DNA of 64,000 bases from Candidatus Rokuibacteriota bacterium (GCA_003220675.1 QHTD01000055.1:18722-82721); one strand, 5' to 3'. Positions 2,106-57,405 are shown, counted from the stretch's first letter. Notes: a model not told the origin generated them from the letters alone. A program made the numbers and translations.

Positions 2106-2636
2106 CTATCTCTTCTCCTTGGACTTGGGACGCTTGGACTTCCCGGCGCCCTTGGCCGCCGCCGTGGTCCTCGGCCGGGCCGCGGCGCGCTCCTTCGTGG
2201 CGGCCGACGCACCCGAAGCCGCCGGCGCGCCAGCCGGCCCGGCCTGCCGTGCGGCCGGCGCGCTCTCGCGGGGCGGCGGGACGGGCCGCGCGGCGCCGTT
2301 GGTCTCGTCACTCACCCCGATCGTGAGATGGCTGGACCGGTGCCGGATGAAAAAGGCGCGCCCCATCGCGCGCGGCTGCACGCGCTTCATCGAGGGTCCC
2401 CCGTCGGCCACCGCGTGGACGACGCGGAGGTCGTCGAGGTTGCGCACCTGGTGGTTGTGCTCGGCGTTGGCGATCGCCGACCGGAGGACCTTCTCGACGA
2501 TCCGGGCCGCGGCGCGCGGCGTGTACTGGAGCGTCGCCAGCGCCTCGCCGACCGACTTCCCGCGAATCTGGTCGAGCACGAGCCGCGCCTTACGAGCGGA
2601 CACGCGGACGAAGCGGGCCCTCGCGAGCGTACGCAT
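2106..2636 (-). CDS. rplV: 50S ribosomal protein L22 with a long Ala/Pro/Lys-rich C-terminal tail
   Basis: 176-aa ORF. The first ~110 aa are L22-like ([23 protein letters not shown]...). About 65 extra low-complexity residues end in [11 protein letters not shown]. Confidence 0.93.
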
Positions 2637-2943: not shown

Positions 2944-3768
2944 CTATTTCCTCCGCCGCGTCACGATGTCGCGGTCCGAGGGCCTCGCCCCGCGGCGGGT
3001 CTTGTAGCCCTTGGTGGGCTTGCCCCACGGGGTCATCGGGTGGTTGCCCTTGCCTTTGCCCTCGCCGCCGCCCATCGGGTGGTCGACAGGGTTCATCACC
3101 GTACCGCGCACTGTCGGGCGGAAGCCGAGCCACCGCACCCGGCCCGCCTTGCCGATCGACACGTTCTCATGATCGAGATTGCCCACCTGGCCGATCGTCG
3201 CCATGCAGGCGACCGACACCATCCGCACCTCGCCCGACGGGAGCTTGAGGGTCGCCCGCTCGCCCTCCTTCGCCAGGAGCTGCGCCTGAGCGCCAGCGCT
3301 CCGGCACATCTGCGCGCCGCGGCCCGGCTGGAGCTCGACGTTGTGGACAAGCGTGCCGACCGGGATGTTGCGGAGCGGCAGCGCGTTACCAGGCAGGATG
3401 TCGGCCTGCGGCCCGGACATGACCGTGTCACCCACCTTGAGCGCGAGGGGCGCGATGATGTAGCGCTTCTCGCCGTCGCGGTAGTGGAGCAGCGCGAGCC
3501 GGGCGGAGCGGTTGGGATCGTACTCGATCGCCGCCACGCGGGCCGGGACCCCGAACTTCTCGCGCCGGAAGTCCACCGTCCGCAGCATCCGTTTCGCCCC
3601 GCCGCCGCGGTGGCGGACGGTGATCCGCCCGTACGTGTTGCGCGCGCTCGTCCGCCGCTTCGGCTCGAGCAGGCTCTTCTCCGGCTCCTTCTTGGTGATC
3701 TCCTCGTTCGTGACGTACGTGAGGTACCGGCGGGCCGGCGAGGTCGGCTTGAGGGTGCGGATTCCCAC
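2944..3768 (-). CDS. rplB: 50S ribosomal protein L2
   Basis: The L2 sequence ([13 protein letters not shown]...GGGEGKGKG...) lies in the 2944..4245 ORF. I place the start at the GTG at 3768-3766, with GAGGGAG upstream. The longer ORF would run through rplW and the repeat array. Confidence 0.94.
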
Positions 3769-3773
3769 GGCGC

Positions 3774-4067
3774 TCAGGCTCCCTCGACCAACTCGATCTT
3801 GTGACCCGGCTGGAGCTTCACGATCGCCTTCTTCCAGTTCGCTCGCCGGCCCTCGAAGCGCCCCATCCGCTTGAGCTTCCCCTCGAACGACGCGGTCCGG
3901 ACCGACGCGACCTTGACGTTGAACACCGCCTCGACAGCGACGCGGATCTCGACCTTGTTCGCATCCGGCCGCACCTTGAACGCGACGGTGTTCTGCTCTT
4001 CCTTCTGGCGCATGCTCTTCTCGGTCATGAGTGGGCGGATCAGGATCTCGCGGGCCGCGCGGGTCAT
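3774..4067 (-). CDS. rplW: 50S ribosomal protein L23
   Basis: 97-aa [35 protein letters not shown]... is L23. Confidence 0.95.
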
Positions 4068-4306
4068 TGTAGCGGGCCCCGCGAGGCCGGAACCATCGGT
4101 GGGTGGCCCGAGAGGCGGCGCGCTCCGGCTCCGTTCCGCTTGCCGCTCTCCATTCCATCGGACCCCCGCGAGGCCGGAACCATCGGTGGGTGGCCCGAGA
4201 GGCGGCGCGCTCCGGCTCCGTTCCGCTTGCCGCTCTCCATTCCATCGGACCCCCGCGAGGCCGGAACCATCGGTGGGTGGCCTGCCGTCGGCACGCGCAG
4301 CTTCAT
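4064..4306 (-). CDS. hypothetical 80-aa junction-bridging ORF across the repeat array (rplD/rplW spacer)
   Basis: The ATG overlaps the rplD TGA (ATGA at 4306-4303). Reads [41 protein letters not shown]...ASRGPLQ. Its TGA overlaps the rplW ATG (ATGA at 4067-4064). The 87-bp repeat period equals 29 codons. Confidence 0.3.
4077..4282 (-). repeat. Perfect tandem array, 87-bp unit x about 2.4, member of the junction repeat family
   Basis: The motif gcgaggccggaaccatcggtgggtggcc recurs at 4081, 4168 and 4255 (period 87). Units 1 and 2 are identical base for base. The array fills the normally tiny rplD-rplW spacer. Confidence 0.9.
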
Positions 4307-4932
4307 CCCGCCAACGCCTGTTCCAGCGCCTGGAGCGCGGCGCGATCGCACACCACGCGCCGCGCCCTCAGTAATTGGTAGACCGAGACATGCGCCGGCG
4401 TCTCGACGATCAGCCACGGCACATTGCGCGACGCGCGCGCCAGGTGCCCGTCGAGCTCGTGAACGACCAGGAGCGTCGGCTCGCCCTTGAGCCCGAGCGC
4501 ACCGAGCTGCGCCACGAGGGACTTGGTCTTGCCGTCGGCGACGTCGAGCGCCTCGATCACGGCGAGTCCGCCGTCGGCGATCCGCGCCGCGACCGCGGCT
4601 CGCAGCGCCTCTCGGCGCATCGCGCGCGGCAGGTCCTGCTCGTAGCTGCGCGGCTTCGGACCGAAGGGCTTCCCGCCGCCCTTCCACTGGGGCGCGCGGA
4701 TCGAGCCCTGACGCGCGCGACCGGTCCCCTTCTGTTTCCAGGGCTTCCTGCCGCCGCCCGAGACCTCGCTGCGGCCGCGGGTGGCGTGAGTGCCCGCGCG
4801 CCGGTCGGCCAGCTCGCGCGTGACCGCCTGATGGAGCAGCGGCACGCGGATCTCGACGCTGAAGACGTCGCCCTTGAGCTCCATCGTCCCCGCCTGCTTG
4901 CCCGTCGCGTCTAGGACCGGTACGGTCGGCAT
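4303..4932 (-). CDS. rplD: 50S ribosomal protein L4
   Basis: MPTVPVLDATGKQAGTMELKGDVF...GGGRKPWKQKGTGRARQGS... is L4. The ATG at 4932 lies 2 nt after the rplC stop. Confidence 0.95.
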   Translation of the reverse strand: MPTVPVLDATGKQAGTMELKGDVFSVEIRVPLLHQAVTRELADRRAGTHATRGRSEVSGGGRKPWKQKGTGRARQGSIRAPQWKGGGKPFGPKPRSYEQDLPRAMRREALRAAVAARIADGGLAVIEALDVADGKTKSLVAQLGALGLKGEPTLLVVHELDGHLARASRNVPWLIVETPAHVSVYQLLRARRVVCDRAALQALEQALAG

Positions 4933-4934
4933 GG

Positions 4935-5609
4935 CTACTTCTTCTCCGCGGCCTTCTGCTGGGCTCGGGTCAGCTTCACGCTCTTGCGGATCATCACCAC
5001 GGAGCCGTTCGCCCCTGGGATCGCGCCGCGGACGAGGACGAGGTTCTGCTCGGGCATCACACGCACGACGCTGAGGTTTAGCACGGTGCGGCGCTGGCCC
5101 CCCATGCGTCCCGGCAGGTGATGGCCGGGCCAGACGCGCGACGGGTCCGACGAGGCGCCGATCGAGCCGGGCGCCCGGTGGAACATCGAGCCGTGGGTCG
5201 CGTCGCCGCCGTACCAGCCGTAGCGCTTGACGCCGCCCTGGAAGCCCTTGCCCTTCGAGACGCCGACGACATCCACGAGCTCGCCCGGTTGGAACACCTC
5301 CACCGTGAGCGCCTGTCCCACCTGGTAGCCCTGGAGCTTCTCGGCCTTCTCGAGCCGGATCTCGCGGACGACCCGCATCGGGGCAACGTTCGCCTTCTTG
5401 AAGAGGCCCGCCTCGGGCTTGGACACGTGCTTCTTCTTGGCGCCAAAGCCGAGCTGGAGCGCGTCGTAGCCATGGGTGTCCTTGGCCCGGATCCCCACGA
5501 TCGTGCATGGCCCCGCCTCGATGACGGTCACGGGCACCTGGTTGCCGTCGTCGCCGAAGACCTGGGTCATACCGATCTTGCGGCCGATGAGCCCCTCCTT
5601 GCGCGCCAT
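4935..5609 (-). CDS. rplC: 50S ribosomal protein L3
   Basis: 224-aa ORF MARKEGLIGRKIGMTQVFGDDGNQVPVTVIEAGPC... is L3. Confidence 0.97.
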   Translation of the reverse strand: MARKEGLIGRKIGMTQVFGDDGNQVPVTVIEAGPCTIVGIRAKDTHGYDALQLGFGAKKKHVSKPEAGLFKKANVAPMRVVREIRLEKAEKLQGYQVGQALTVEVFQPGELVDVVGVSKGKGFQGGVKRYGWYGGDATHGSMFHRAPGSIGASSDPSRVWPGHHLPGRMGGQRRTVLNLSVVRVMPEQNLVLVRGAIPGANGSVVMIRKSVKLTRAQQKAAEKK

Positions 5610-5860
5610 CAGCTTATTCGGAGGGGGCCTCGACGGCCCCGACCTTCTCCACCACTGGGGGAGGCGGCGGCAAAGCCGCCGCTCGAAGGCCCGGCCGCAG
5701 GACGATCAACACGGCCCAGATACGAGTCGGCGAGGGGCCGCGAGTCCAAATGGCGAGCATCGCGAGGCCCGAGGGAGGAGCCGACCGGAGCGTACGCGGT
5801 TGTACGTGAGGATCGGCGACGACCGAGAACGAAGCGAGGCGACGCCAGTTGGACTCGCAT
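5609..5860 (-). CDS. hypothetical 83-aa junction-bridging ORF (rpsJ/rplC spacer)
   Basis: ORF-track entry 5609..5860. Its ATG shares one base with the rpsJ TGA (TGATG), and its TGA shares one base with the rplC ATG (TGATG). Ends ...GRRGPLRIS. Low-complexity sequence; expression unknown. Confidence 0.3.
   Translation of the reverse strand: MRVQLASPRFVLGRRRSSRTTAYAPVGSSLGPRDARHLDSRPLADSYLGRVDRPAAGPSSGGFAAASPSGGEGRGRRGPLRIS
5616..5690 (-). repeat. Divergent copy of the junction repeat family (terminal module)
   Basis: In the gene direction, GCCGCCGCCTC...GGGGCCGTCGAGGCCCCCTCCGAATAA aligns by eye with the family end GCGCGCCGCCTC...GGCCTCGCGGGGCCCGCTACAATGA. Confidence 0.35.
5740..5858 (-). repeat. 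119-nt inverted-repeat (hairpin) element directly after the rpsJ stop
   Basis: Arms gcgagtccaaatggcg (5740-5755) and cgccagttggactcgc (5843-5858) pair at 15 of 16 positions around 87 nt. The interior holds a nested stem CCGAUC/GGUCGG and a CGUAC/GUACG hairpin. Confidence 0.6.
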
Positions 5861-7421: not shown

Positions 7422-7497
7422 TGGAGCCCATGTCCGGGATTGAACCGGAGACCTCGTCCTTACCAAGGACGCGCTCTGCCGACTGAGCTACATGGGC
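7422..7497 (-). tRNA. tRNA-Thr (anticodon GGT)
   Basis: The reverse complement GCCCATGTAGCTCAGTCGGCAGAGCGCGTCCTTGGTAAGGACG...GGTTCAATCC...GGGCTCCA folds as a cloverleaf. Anticodon loop TTGGTAA; encoded CCA. Confidence 0.9.
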
Positions 7498-7526
7498 GAA
7501 CGAAAAACTCGCGGGCCCAAAATTCC

Positions 7527-7601
7527 TGGAGCGGGAAACGGGATTCGAACCCGCGACCCCCAGCTTGGAAGGCTGGCGCTCTGCCGCTGAGCTATTCCCG
7601 C
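7527..7601 (-). tRNA. tRNA-Gly (anticodon TCC)
   Basis: The reverse complement is GCGGGAATAGCTCAGCGGCAGAGCGCCAGCCTTCCAAGCTGGGGGTCGCGGGTTCGAATCCCGTTTCCCGCTCCA. Anticodon loop CTTCCAA. Confidence 0.9.
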
Positions 7602-7631
7602 CCCTCCGAGTCACGTGTGCGTCAACCGAGA

Positions 7632-7717
7632 TGGTGGGGAGGGGAGGATTTGAACCCCCGAAGGCGTACGCCAGCAGATTTACAGTCTGCCCCCTTTGGC
7701 CACTTGGGTACCTCCCC
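7632..7717 (-). tRNA. tRNA-Tyr (anticodon GTA), long variable arm
   Basis: The reverse complement is GGGGAGGTACCCAAGTGGCCAAAGGGGGCAGACTGTAAATCTGCTGGCGTACGCCTTCGGGGGTTCAAATCCTCCCCTCCCCACCA. 86 nt; anticodon loop CTGTAAA. Confidence 0.9.
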
Positions 7718-7799
7718 GAATCCGCCGGCACGCGATGAGAACCCCTCGAATCTCGAGTGCATGGCTCGGCTCGCCTAGTGGCTGCGCCTCGCACTGCCA

Positions 7800-7874
7800 T
7801 GGCGCTGGCGGGAGGATTTGAACCCCCGACCCACTGCTTACAAGGCAGTTGCTCTGCCCCTGAGCTACGCCAGC
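7800..7874 (-). tRNA. tRNA-Thr (anticodon TGT)
   Basis: The reverse complement is GCTGGCGTAGCTCAGGGGCAGAGCAACTGCCTTGTAAGCAGTGGGTCGGGGGTTCAAATCCTCCCGCCAGCGCCA. Anticodon loop CTTGTAA. Confidence 0.9.
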
Positions 7875-18302: not shown

Positions 18303-18437
18303 TTATTGTAACGGGGTCCGCGAGGCCGCCACACTCCGGGGGTGGCCTGATCCAGGCGCGACCCGGCTCCCTTCCTCTCCCGCCCTCACGCCGGGCATCC
18401 GCGAGGCCGCCCCACTCCCCAACGCCCTTTGCGTCAT
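18303..18437 (-). CDS. hypothetical 44-aa junction-bridging ORF (hisA/hisF spacer)
   Basis: The ATG overlaps the hisA TGA (ATGA at 18437-18434). Reads [44 protein letters not shown]. Its TAA at 18305-18303 directly abuts the hisF ATG. Confidence 0.3.
18313..18428 (-). repeat. Junction repeat family copy (H-C-H) filling the hisA-hisF spacer
   Basis: The plus strand reads ggggtccgcgaggccgccacactccgggggtggcctga ... cggctcccttcc ... gcgaggccgccccac. This is the same module order as 4077-4282, 21715-21830 and 51908-52015. Confidence 0.7.
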
Positions 18438-20404: not shown

Positions 20405-21768
20405 TCGCTCCTCCCTGGGTCGTTCCCGAGCCGTAGCTCGGCCGCGCGCCCGTGCCCGGCGAGCCCCTCGATCCGCGTGAGCGTCCTGAGATGGGGCGCG
20501 GCGGCGGCGAGCCCGCGCAGCGAGTACTCGATGACGCTCGAGCGCTTGACGAAATCCTCTGTGCCGAGCGGCGACGCGAAGCGCGCCGTGCCCGCGGTTG
20601 GGAGGACGTGGTTGGGACCCGCGACGTAGTCGCCGACCACCTCCGGGGTGTGGCCGCCCACGAAGACCGCTCCCGCATGGCGGACGCGCGGCACGAGAGC
20701 CGCGGGGACGCTCACCATCAGCTCGAGGTGCTCCGGCGCCAGGCGGTTGGCCAGCTCGACCGCGTCGTCGAGCGACGCCACGCGGATCAGCGCGCCGTTG
20801 GCCTCGAGTGCCCGCGCGGCGATCTCGCGGCGCGGCAGCGTGGCGAGCTGGCGCTCGAGCGCCGCCGCGACGCGCGCCAACAGGTCCGCCGCGTCCGTGA
20901 TGCAGAGCGCGCGGGCCATCGGGTCGTGCTCCGCTTGCGCGAGCATGTCGGCCGCCACCCACGCGGGATCGGCGGCGCCGTCGGCCACGACGACGATCTC
21001 GCTCGGCCCCGCCACCATGTCGATGCCGACCTCGCCGAACACGCGCGCCTTCGCCAACGCCACGTAGATGTTCCCGGGGCCGACGATCTTGTCGACACGG
21101 CGGATCGTCGCCGTGCCGTACGCGAGCGCCGCCACCGCCTGGGCCCCGCCGAGGCGATAGCCCTCGGTGACGCCGGCGAGGCGGGCGGCGCCGAGTATCG
21201 CGGGCTCGACGCGGCCCCCGGGGCCCGCCGGCGTCACGAGCACGATCTCGCGGACGCCCGCGACGCGCGCCGGCACCGCGGTCATCAACACCGTGGACGG
21301 GTATGCCGCGCGCCCCCCTGGCGCGTAGATCCCCACCCGGTCGAGCGCCCGGACCTCCTGGCCGAGGACGGAGCCGTGCTCGTCGGTGAGGCGCCACGAC
21401 TTCGGCGCCGCCACCGCATGATAGCGCTCGATCCGCTCCGCCGCGTAGGCCAGGGCCGCGCGGACCTCGGGCGCGAGCCGTCGCTCCGCCGTCTCGAACT
21501 CGTCCGGAGTGATTACGAGCTCCGTCGGCGTCGCCGCGGTGAAGCCGTCGAAGCGCGCGGTCAGCTCGAGGAGCGCCGCGTCGCCGCGGGCGCGCACGTC
21601 GGCCAGGATCCGGTCGACCGCCCGGTGGATCTCGGGTGGGACGGCCGCCGGCGAGCGCGCGAGCGCCTCGACAACGGCACCAAGGCCGAGCTGCCGCGCG
21701 TCGATCACGCGGATCGGGTGGGCTGAGACGAGAGGCGAGTCGGCTCCGTTCCGCTCGTCGCTCTTCAT
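20401..21768 (-). CDS. hisD: Histidinol dehydrogenase; first ~17 codons derive from the junction repeat
   Basis: HisD body (...AAYPSTVLMTAVPARVAGV...QAEHDP...). The called ATG at 21768 lies inside the repeat ([18 protein letters not shown] parallels [18 protein letters not shown]). The true start may be further downstream. Confidence 0.9.
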   Translation of the reverse strand: MKSDERNGADSPLVSAHPIRVIDARQLGLGAVVEALARSPAAVPPEIHRAVDRILADVRARGDAALLELTARFDGFTAATPTELVITPDEFETAERRLAPEVRAALAYAAERIERYHAVAAPKSWRLTDEHGSVLGQEVRALDRVGIYAPGGRAAYPSTVLMTAVPARVAGVREIVLVTPAGPGGRVEPAILGAARLAGVTEGYRLGGAQAVAALAYGTATIRRVDKIVGPGNIYVALAKARVFGEVGIDMVAGPSEIVVVADGAADPAWVAADMLAQAEHDPMARALCITDAADLLARVAAALERQLATLPRREIAARALEANGALIRVASLDDAVELANRLAPEHLELMVSVPAALVPRVRHAGAVFVGGHTPEVVGDYVAGPNHVLPTAGTARFASPLGTEDFVKRSSVIEYSLRGLAAAAPHLRTLTRIEGLAGHGRAAELRLGNDPGRSE

Positions 21769-21830
21769 TCCAACGCCCCTGGGGCCGCCACACTCGGTGG
21801 GTGGCCTGAGACAGTCGCTGGGTGGCGCCG
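21715..21830 (-). repeat. Junction repeat family copy absorbed into the hisG 3' end and hisD 5' end
   Basis: The plus strand reads gggtgggctgagacgagaggcgagtcggctccgttccgctcgtcgctcttcattccaacgcccctggggccgccacactcggtgggtggcctgag. The core ggctccgttccgct is identical to the 4130 copy. Confidence 0.65.
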
Positions 21831-51196: not shown

Positions 51197-51888
51197 GCCG
51201 CGACCGCCACGAGCCTGCCGTAGAGGGGATAGGCGCGGACCGTGAGCGTCGTGATCCCCGCCTTCTGCGCGAGCGCGGCGAGCTCGGCCGCCGAGTACGC
51301 GCGCCGCACGGAGAGCGGCCCGTCATGGCGCGAGATCGGGTGGCATCGGAGGAGCCGCGTCGCAAGCCACACGAGCCCGAGCGCCAGGCGCGTGCGCAAG
51401 AGGTCGTTCACGATGACTGCGCGCCGCGCCGCCGCCGCCATCTCCCGCAGGCTGGCCACGGCCGCGTCGGGCTCGAGGTGGTGCAGCGTGAGCGCGCTCG
51501 TCACGACGTCCGCGGCGCCCTCTCGGAGGGGCAGCGCCGTCGCGTCGGCGACGACGAGCGAGATCTCCGGATAGGCGGCGCACGCGCGGCGCGCCAGCGC
51601 CAGGGTCTCCACATCCCGATCGACCACGACCACGCGAATCGCCCGGCGCGCGCCCCGCGCCCAGTCGACCAGGCGCACGCCGAATGCAGCGTGGCCGCCC
51701 CCCACGTCCACGGCGACGAGCGCGTCGCCCCCAGGGACCGCAGCGACGACGCGACAGATCTCGCGTAATGTGAGCGCGTAGCCGCCGAACCAGGCGTTGA
51801 GCCGGTCGATATCGGCGAGCGACGCGACCCGGTCCGCCAGCGCCACCGGGCGGTCGAGGATCTCCAGCGCCCCATCGGCCCGGTCCAT
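51193..51888 (-). CDS. Class I SAM-dependent methyltransferase
   Basis: Motif I VAVDVGGGHAAFG and post-I VVVVDRD. I prefer the ATG at 51888 (MDRADG...). The ORF-track start, GTG 51921, lies inside the junction repeat. Confidence 0.8.
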   Translation of the reverse strand: MDRADGALEILDRPVALADRVASLADIDRLNAWFGGYALTLREICRVVAAVPGGDALVAVDVGGGHAAFGVRLVDWARGARRAIRVVVVDRDVETLALARRACAAYPEISLVVADATALPLREGAADVVTSALTLHHLEPDAAVASLREMAAAARRAVIVNDLLRTRLALGLVWLATRLLRCHPISRHDGPLSVRRAYSAAELAALAQKAGITTLTVRAYPLYGRLVAVAA

Positions 51889-51907
51889 CAGTTGTGGCGA
51901 GGTCCGC

Positions 51908-52015
51908 GGGGCCGGTGACACTCCCGGGTGGCCTGAGCCAGGTGCGAGCGGCTCCGTACCGTTATCACCATCGCTCTAAGCCCCAAGGCCGGTCGCACTC
52001 CCAGGCCAGTGCACC
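51908..52015 (-). repeat. Junction repeat family copy in the PKS-methyltransferase spacer
   Basis: The plus strand reads ggggccggtgacactcccgggtggcctgag ... gcggctccgtaccgtt ... aaggccggtcgcactcccaggcc, the same H-C-H order and orientation as the other copies. Confidence 0.6.
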
Positions 52016-57312: not shown

Positions 57313-57330
57313 GCGGATCTCCTTTGTGGC

Positions 57331-57405
57331 GGGGTCCCCGAGCACGGTCGGCGCGGTGGGTGGTCTGAGCGCGGCGCGCTCCGCCTCCGTCCGTACTCTA
57401 TAATC
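57331..57405 (-). repeat. Partial junction repeat family copy between SDR and the IlvD/Edd gene
   Basis: The plus strand reads ggggtccccgagcacggtcggcgcggtgggtggtctgagcgcggcgcgctccgcctccgtccgtactctataat and aligns with the 4090-4150 and 18313-18380 copies. The gene-direction end ACCCCGCCACAA lies 14 nt before the SDR ATG. Confidence 0.5.

Follow-up and report, generated by a model that had tools for sequence, protein, structure and literature searches.

A dispersed intercistronic repeat family of soil Rokubacteria resembling MIRUs, with an array in the S10 operon and a putative role in translational coupling

The 64,000-nucleotide (nt) stretch of a Candidatus Rokuibacteriota contig that we analyzed (GCA_003220675.1, QHTD01000055.1:18722-82721; hereafter, the window) carries a perfect tandem array between rplD and rplW, the S10 operon genes encoding ribosomal proteins L4 and L23. 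Both genes and the array lie on the minus strand, in a genome with a GC content of 70%. Judging from the sequence, this array is one locus of a dispersed repeat family of uncultured soil Rokubacteria, which is apparently undescribed: a literature search for repeats in Rokubacteria found nothing relevant. The reading that we favor, with a probability of about 0.7, is that this family consists of sense-oriented intercistronic repeats analogous to the interspersed repetitive units of mycobacteria (MIRUs), which would relay translational coupling between the genes that they separate.

The array (positions 4077-4282; period 87 nt, 2.4 copies, 100% matches, TRF score 412) is by far the strongest tandem array in the window and the only high-scoring one. 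A 28-mer matches exactly at 4081, 4168 and 4255; 100 shuffles gave zero matches. On the coding strand, the architecture is A-B-A-B-A, with A segments of 32 nt and B segments of 55 nt. The spacer between rplD and rplW extends over 4068-4302 (235 nt), and the frame 4306..4064 is open through 80 codons, from the ATGA at the rplD stop to the ATGA at the rplW start. A preliminary description of this DNA had reported a perfect 87-bp array of 2.4 copies with two identical full units, bridged by an 80-codon open reading frame (ORF) with ATGA at both ends. The repeat search, the 28-mer matches and a direct reading of 4306-4303 and 4067-4064 bear out each of these points. Metatranscriptome contigs cross both edges of the spacer, the one with rplD and the one with rplW, and a scan of 3700-4700 detected no promoter-like or terminator-like sites in the spacer, so that the insert appears to be transcribed together with the operon.

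The closest species representatives are soil metagenome-assembled genomes (MAGs) of Candidatus Rokubacteria (Rokuibacteriota/Methylomirabilota), with L4 identity of at most 75%. For 80 genomes, we estimated the rplD-rplW gap from tblastn hits: it is negative or does not exceed 2 nt in 77, amounts to 12 nt in one (L076) and is long only in the Rokubacteria L022 and L023. Direct reading of the junction in four other Rokubacteria (L021, L024, L025 and L030) reveals a single ATGA in which the two genes overlap, and the first ATGA of the window (4303-4306) occupies the site of this ancestral overlap. The premise of the preliminary description, that rplD and rplW normally abut, is thus confirmed, and the alignment of related junctions that it called for yields either empty ATGA sites or diverged, bridged inserts. 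Such inserts are present in L022 (spacer of ~130 nt) and L023 (~110 nt), with 5' parts recognizably homologous to that of the window, and a one-unit diverged element occupies the same junction in another population (L122). In all three, a single ORF, of ~45 amino acids (aa) in L022, 39 aa in L023 and 36 aa in L122, leads from an overlap with the rplD stop to a TGA on the rplW ATG. When these orthologous bridging ORFs are compared, the majority of the differences alter the amino acid. The S10 insert is flanked by ATGA on both sides, compared to the one ATGA at empty sites; the doubling could be a 4-bp target duplication or the sole way for both genes to stay intact.

In L021-L025, a Shine-Dalgarno-like GGAGG lies within the last rplD codons, ~10 nt before the ATGA, and in L030, too, GGAGG inside the rplD coding end precedes the ATGA. 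In the window (4310-4345), this motif is degraded to GGAACAGG; L022 and L023, which also carry the insert, have kept it. Separately, two more distant Rokubacteria/Methylomirabilota (L026:1690-1930 and L027:1770-1960) encode L4 with a low-complexity C-terminal extension of 45-60 residues that ends overlapping the L23 start, so that the additional junction sequence forms part of L4 instead of an ORF of its own; the extension shows no family motif.

The same L4 and L23 proteins, identical in sequence, are encoded on many soil metagenome and MAG contigs. Among 20 such loci, the spacer is 148 nt long (A-B-A) in 16 and 235 nt long (A-B-A-B-A) in 4, a comparison made at the level of assemblies. The 235-nt allele is present on differing backgrounds of single-nucleotide polymorphisms (SNPs), in several independent assemblies, and in two of these loci (L008 and L020), the first A carries two differences from the other copies of A. 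Such a pattern would hardly arise through mis-assembly of a 148-nt allele. Because the longer form occurs with different SNPs and, in L008/L020, with a divergent first A, these observations suggest that one 87-nt unit is recurrently gained or lost between the direct A repeats. The bridging frame is open in all 8 peptide haplotypes, with a length of either 51 or 80 aa. From the identity of the two units, the preliminary description had concluded that the duplication was very recent, and, from the equivalence of 87 nt to 29 codons, that changes in copy number would not break the frame; it had also proposed to look for population variation at the junction. All three expectations are borne out: sister assemblies with identical L4 and L23 have one unit fewer, both alleles occur among the assemblies, and neither breaks the frame.

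The repeat extends far beyond the S10 operon. A degenerate A motif has 7 matches in the window against 0.03 expected, and the four sites outside the S10 operon are all on the minus strand. We then used a pattern for the B-A boundary, ACGGAGCCG-N7-16-CAGGCCACCC, that was chosen not to match the S10 array of the window; it matched at least 120 soil metagenome loci, L122 among them. The array statistics given below are drawn from at least 107 arrays in the listed soil metagenome loci, with chance matches removed. An nhmmer profile built from metagenome units only matches, on the minus strand throughout, each of the three S10 units as well as four further sites in the window; since no unit of the S10 array contributed to this profile, the membership of that array in the family is independently supported. 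The core unit of the family, about 66 nt long, has the form ACGGAGCCGGGTCGC..CT....CAGGCCACCC-N14-GGCCTCGCGGACCCCGCTACAA, and a long form contains ~20 nt extra. Two to four units are present in 41 of these arrays (27 with two anchors, 10 with three and 4 with four), the tandem periods being 66 nt in 15 arrays, 86 nt in 7 and 87 nt in 4, and the copies are exclusively direct, without inverted ones. At three loci (L123:3773-3850, L177:3376-3520 and L141:610-800), there are shorter sub-repeats, with periods of 34-39 and 60 nt, that comprise only the 5' half-unit and contain GTGCCTAGAGCAGGCCACCC, which suggests internal slippage or a truncated subfamily.

The arrays are strongly oriented relative to the genes around them: 59 arrays share the direction of both flanking genes, and 10 run opposite to both (p = 1e-9). 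At its 3' side, the unit ends in ...GCTACA, and ATGA or GTGA very often follows; at such ends, the ATG or GTG opens a long ORF with a gene-like GC content at third codon positions (GC3), and the TGA closes the frame of the element. An NTGA overlap with a gene-like ORF is found at 33 array ends, a 1-nt overlap at 3 and direct abutment at 1, and in 6 further arrays, an ACAA end is followed by AGGAG and a start codon. Of the 37 cases in which a gene-like ORF begins at the element end in the register of the family, 31 have A as the fourth base (p = 4e-15, against a background of 22.5% A at first codon positions). To follow these overlaps across whole spacers, we walked forward from the stop codon of the upstream co-oriented gene to the downstream gene, permitting only overlapping or abutting stop/start pairs. 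In the 63 arrays that are testable in this way, that is, those with a co-oriented gene ending at most 200 nt upstream, an unbroken ORF chain reaches the downstream gene in 30, and 4 further chains run off their contigs. The 30 of 63 exceed a generous null in which one frame in three is suitable (p = 0.004). Bridging is therefore frequent, but not universal.

The period classes fit two modes of bridging. The 66-nt and 87-nt arrays are read through in a single frame, 22 and 29 codons per unit, respectively. The 86-nt unit (as in L134, L152 and L111) is a 29-codon mini-ORF (for example, MRSHMPNGAGTRPVSGHPPRAPGARTQME followed by a stop) that is linked to the next one by ATGA, which explains the period: 90 nt less the 4 nt of the ATGA overlap gives 86. 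Periods of the 1 mod 3 type are rare (5 of 37).

In contrast to the geometry of the ends, the encoded peptides show no sign of conservation. A search of 5.8 billion proteins found no homologue of the 80-aa ORF product at E <= 0.01; the ORF product matches no Pfam family, has no exact record and was never called as a gene in the collection searched. The GC3 of the bridging ORF is 0.78 compared to 0.90-0.93 in the neighboring genes, and its GC content at second codon positions (GC2) is 0.65 compared to 0.4-0.5 in real genes. Variability along the unit lacks codon-position periodicity (entropy of 0.83, 0.67 and 0.80 bits). Several synonymous-looking changes (CCN, TCG/TCA, CTA/CTC/TTA and CAA/CAG) were spotted by eye, but given the absence of periodicity, they do not amount to a general signal. 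The short (66-nt) and long (86/87-nt) subfamilies differ in the frame in which they read the ACGGAGCCG motif, and stop codons are rare in all three unit frames (4, 7 and 0 in 82 units). Thus, the peptide sequence is unconstrained, and conservation is confined to a pair of nucleotide motifs and to the way in which the ends are placed with respect to the neighboring start and stop codons.

In the scenario that we favor, an ancestral A-B-A element of 148 nt would have come to sit exactly at the overlapping ATGA of rplD and rplW, leaving ATGA on each side, and an extra 87-nt B-A unit would have been added very recently when the direct A repeats underwent unequal recombination or slipped during replication. 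Because 87 nt equals 29 codons, the frame that opens at the relic ATG on the rplD stop continues to end with the TGA overlapping the rplW ATG. Ribosomes that terminate translation of rplD would restart on the overlapping ATG, traverse the repeat, terminate at the rplW start codon and restart there. In this manner, rplW and the following genes would stay translationally coupled despite a 235-nt insert that lacks a Shine-Dalgarno sequence of its own. The peptide itself would have no function, and the ACGGAGCCG and CAGGCCACCC motifs are probably recognized by the mechanism of spreading or recombination.

Several observations weigh against this scenario. Among the testable arrays, 29 of 63 are unchained, and of 104 array ends, 61 have no start codon adjoining them. 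The array counts are not phylogenetically independent, and because the units within an array are copies of each other, the chains within arrays are inherited and do not count as independent cases. In a genome with such a high GC content, long stretches without stops commonly occur in every frame, and stops are rare in all unit frames, so the openness of the ORFs is weak evidence. The enrichment of NTGA could stem from an insertion-site preference or target duplication instead of selection for coupling. The copy number of this particular contig rests on assembly, with the Logan k = 31 contigs of public runs breaking or collapsing at the repeat; the RNA libraries on which the case for co-transcription is built may carry DNA; and the translation of the bridging ORFs is deduced from the sequence rather than observed.

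Some of these points would be readily accommodated if the family were neutral selfish or minisatellite DNA that spreads by itself, with rplW initiating independently and no relay involved, which we regard as the main rival explanation and a real, if minor, possibility. The bridging ORF would then be a by-product of insertion at ATGA or GTGA, with target duplication, and of the scarcity of stops in GC-rich DNA. The ATGA on both sides of the insert as opposed to the single one at the empty sites of relatives, the paucity of stops in all three unit frames, the unconstrained peptide sequence and the many unchained arrays all agree with this explanation. However, the 3' end of the element has no Shine-Dalgarno sequence ahead of the rplW ATG, and the GGAGG that relatives have in the rplD end has decayed in the lineage of the window. 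That non-abutting copies sometimes show AGGAG and a start codon, as in the 6 arrays mentioned above, suggests that initiation must be supplied one way or the other. Furthermore, the chain-breaking 1 mod 3 periods are under-represented, and the insert persists at this junction across lineages with L4 only 75% identical. None of these counterarguments is decisive.

A structural role, with the ORF being irrelevant, appears quite improbable. The repeat would be a structured RNA or DNA element, such as a hairpin resembling the repetitive extragenic palindromic (REP) sequences and bacterial interspersed mosaic elements (BIMEs), with a role in stabilizing or processing the polycistronic transcript, or the target of an autoregulatory ribosomal protein. 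The element is transcribed with the operon, is intercistronic and sense-oriented like many REPs, often contains a short AGGCC...GGCCT complement, and possesses nucleotide motifs that are invariant, with a reading frame that differs between the 66-nt and 86/87-nt subfamilies. Nevertheless, its predicted folding energy is no better than that of shuffled sequences (z = +0.21 for the spacer and +0.61 for one unit). RNAalifold applied to 30 diverse units gives -4.2 kcal/mol with a covariation term of 0.03 and 0 compensatory pairs. A mutual-information scan of diverse units likewise finds no compensatory pairs, and the top column correlations are not of the Watson-Crick type. In the spacer, Rfam has no match at the gathering threshold, relaxing the limit to an E of 10 adds nothing beyond hits expected by chance, and the copies are always direct. 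The occurrence of the element in unrelated operons (S10, his and polyketide) argues, in addition, against a regulator specific to ribosomal proteins.

It is unlikely, too, that the 2.4-copy state is an assembly artefact, that is, a true 1.4-copy locus that was resolved incorrectly; we give this explanation only a very small chance. The repeated A-B-A stretch (119 nt) is close to the length of a short read, most sister assemblies have the 148-nt spacer, and the k = 31 contigs are broken or collapsed here; some of these contigs contain joints that skip 174 nt, which we dismissed as graph artefacts across the 32-nt A. Yet the 235-nt form was assembled independently in at least 4 metagenomes, on varied SNP backgrounds and, in one case, with a non-identical first A. 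By inference, the B-A-B junction cannot come from the 148-nt allele at the k-mer sizes used, and a contig from run X5 matches 4143-4203 (B-A-B) without a mismatch, which lends weak support. Multi-copy arrays are, moreover, common in the family.

That the 80-codon ORF encodes a functional small protein is hardly credible: all alleles and the diverged relatives keep the frame open and there is a recurrent GHP...ASR.PLQ motif, but there is no homologue, Pfam family or gene call on record, the composition is atypical, codon periodicity is absent, changes between orthologous spacers are mostly non-synonymous, the 5' motif is read in differing frames depending on the subfamily, and the length changes by 29 residues between close strains.

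The reading of the array as a relay of translational coupling invites comparison with the MIRUs, which are repeats of 40-100 bp present at 41 loci in M. tuberculosis H37Rv, 12 of which are variable in copy number (PMC2734929). In a recent review on translational coupling, MIRUs are described as inserting at start codons, with an internal ORF coupled to the gene at a spacing of -4, an arrangement that would keep any change in expression to a minimum (PMC12548453, citing Supply et al. 1997). The resemblance is extensive. The Rokubacteria units are arranged directly, head to tail, with a length within the 40-100 bp range (87 nt in the S10 array and 66, 86 or 87 nt in the family). They are dispersed over many intergenic sites (5 loci in the 64-kb window and at least 107 metagenome arrays) and lie in the sense orientation between co-oriented genes (59 arrays vs 10). 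They contain small ORFs that overlap the neighboring stop and start codons (ATGA/GTGA, spacing of -4), and their copy number differs between close strains, here, at the assembly level, in the form of the 148-nt and 235-nt spacers. Chained units of both families have a length of 2 mod 3 with 4-nt overlaps, 86 nt in the Rokubacteria. MIRU units are 77 and 53 nt long, both 2 mod 3.

There are also differences. The hosts are uncultured Rokubacteria/Methylomirabilota rather than Actinobacteria; of the three period classes (66, 86 and 87 nt), two are translatable in a single frame without chaining; some copies are absorbed into flanking coding ends (hisG/hisD); and one locus lies inside the S10 operon. 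We found all the functional features that could be tested, with translation of the small ORFs and coupling of the flanking genes being predicted; because the host phylum differs, the likeness rests on functional features and kinship in sequence is not to be expected, we classify the Rokubacteria family as a putative analogue of MIRUs and not as a member of the MIRU family. One could go further and propose that a selfish family has independently converged on the MIRU solution, such that the relay ORF it carries, with its NTGA end, allows it to colonize constrained junctions (rplD/rplW, hisG/hisD and hisA/hisF), and copy number would become a tunable, fast-mutating setting of coupling or stoichiometry. 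We consider this extended version possible, albeit on the doubtful side.

Other known systems are more distant. The REPs and BIMEs of enterobacteria and pseudomonads, which are associated with RAYT, are likewise short, abundant, transcribed, often located inside operons and sometimes clustered. However, REPs are imperfect palindromes, often in inverted pairs, that form RNA hairpins, whereas the Rokubacteria copies are direct only and display neither folding nor covariation, and their defining feature is the ORF overlap with the neighboring genes. Rickettsia palindromic elements (RPEs) are palindromic repeats inserted in frame inside coding sequences. Like RPEs, the Rokubacteria repeats appear to be selfish elements tolerated through intact frames, with the hisG/hisD copy adding residues to both proteins; in contrast to RPEs, they are located at gene boundaries, mostly as separate coupled mini-ORFs. 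The short upstream ORFs proposed to serve in ribosome delivery (PMC12548453) share the -4 stop/start overlap and the irrelevance of the peptide sequence, but here the short ORF comes from a repeat with variable copy number rather than from a locus-specific leader. Three further kinds of element were considered. The element ends lack the terminal inverted repeats of a miniature inverted-repeat transposable element (MITE); ATGA on both sides vs one at empty sites could be a target-site duplication, but the two genes also need this pattern to be intact. A CRISPR array is incompatible with 55-nt B 'spacers' that do not differ from one another and themselves belong to the dispersed unit. Integron attC sites do not fit either, there being no core or inverse-core motifs in the sequence and the operons being of the housekeeping type.

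In the recent review of translational coupling, MIRUs are the sole example of a mobile repeat with a coupled ORF (PMC12548453), and the idea behind this example has hardly been tested so far. If the same architecture has arisen in an unrelated family of a distant, uncultured phylum, this would point to a general route by which repeats enter operons without breaking expression. The kind of element is already known; an independent second example, reaching into the S10 operon, makes the idea of a coupling-preserving selfish repeat testable, and the at least 107 arrays in three period classes form a large natural data set on selection for frame continuity. On the practical side, the arrays are hypervariable and offer markers with which Rokubacteria strains in soil metagenomes can be typed. 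The arrays can also be expected to cause assembly collapse and incorrect annotation of gene ends, such as spurious tails of HisG and HisD and missed small ORFs.

The features of the S10 array and the four other loci of the family in the window are listed in Table 1.

Table 1. Positions of the rplD-rplW array, the adjoining genes and the other family loci in the window
Feature	Coordinates	Strand	Evidence and remarks
rplD (ribosomal protein L4, 209 aa)	4303..4932	minus	Pfam PF00573, E 2e-63; stop TGA 4305-4303
First ATGA junction (rplD TGA overlapping ATG of the bridging ORF)	4303..4306	minus	Direct sequence reading
Bridging ORF, 80 codons, ending in PLQ and stop	4064..4306	minus	Open frame
Segment A, copy 1 (32 nt), with family core CAGGCCACCC	4251..4282	minus	nhmmer 4253-4290, E 3e-5
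Segment B, copy 1 (55 nt), with family motif ACGGAGCCG	4196..4250	minus	Alignment with other family copies
Segment A, copy 2	4164..4195	minus	nhmmer 4166-4221, E 1e-7
Segment B, copy 2	4109..4163	minus	Repeat alignment
Segment A, copy 3, followed by family 3' end GCTACA and second ATGA	4077..4108	minus	Full-length nhmmer match 4067-4134, E 3e-10
Second ATGA junction (TGA of the bridging ORF overlapping rplW ATG)	4064..4067	minus	Direct sequence reading
rplW (ribosomal protein L23, 97 aa)	3774..4067	minus	Pfam PF00276, E 1e-33
hisA/hisF junction locus	18303..18437	minus	nhmmer 18306-18370, E 1e-14; 44-aa bridging ORF
hisG/hisD junction locus	21716..21818	minus	nhmmer 21780-21818 and 21716-21749
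Fourth locus, before a methyltransferase gene	51892..51957	minus	nhmmer E 1e-9; in frame into the ATG at 51888
Fifth locus, in a divergent intergenic region	57324..57390	minus	nhmmer E 5e-6

These loci exemplify different relationships with the flanking genes. At the hisA/hisF junction, the bridging ORF starts at an ATGA on the hisA stop and ends at a TAA that directly abuts the hisF ATG. At hisG/hisD, the element is absorbed into the coding ends, with an internal ATGA at 21768-21765, and accounts for the last ~14 residues of HisG and the first ~18 residues of HisD, all outside the Pfam domains; because the element supplies these terminal residues, both proteins receive non-homologous tails in automatic annotation. 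The gene on the other side of the fourth locus looks, by eye, like that of a type III polyketide synthase. In the fifth locus, AGGAG directly follows the 3' end, ACAA, and a short-chain dehydrogenase gene then starts (57312).

Elsewhere in the ribosomal protein cluster, the spacer between rpsJ (S10) and rplC (L3) (5609-5860, minus strand) is 250 nt long compared to 10-28 nt in most Rokubacteria relatives. It is bridged exactly by an 83-codon ORF, with the ATG overlapping the S10 TGA and the TGA overlapping the L3 ATG (TGATG in both cases), and L023 has a homologous 151-nt spacer with a similar ORF. We considered this spacer as a copy of the family or another dispersed repeat and rejected both options, given that it has no similarity to A or B and is unrepeated in the sequences compared. 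The L22 homologue (2106-2636, minus strand; 176 aa) has an Ala/Pro/Lys-rich C-terminal tail of ~60 residues, which makes it far longer than typical bacterial L22. Four tRNA genes (7425-7874, minus strand; Rfam scores of 57-73 bits), the only matches in the window at the Rfam gathering threshold, are located immediately upstream of tuf, in an ordinary arrangement.

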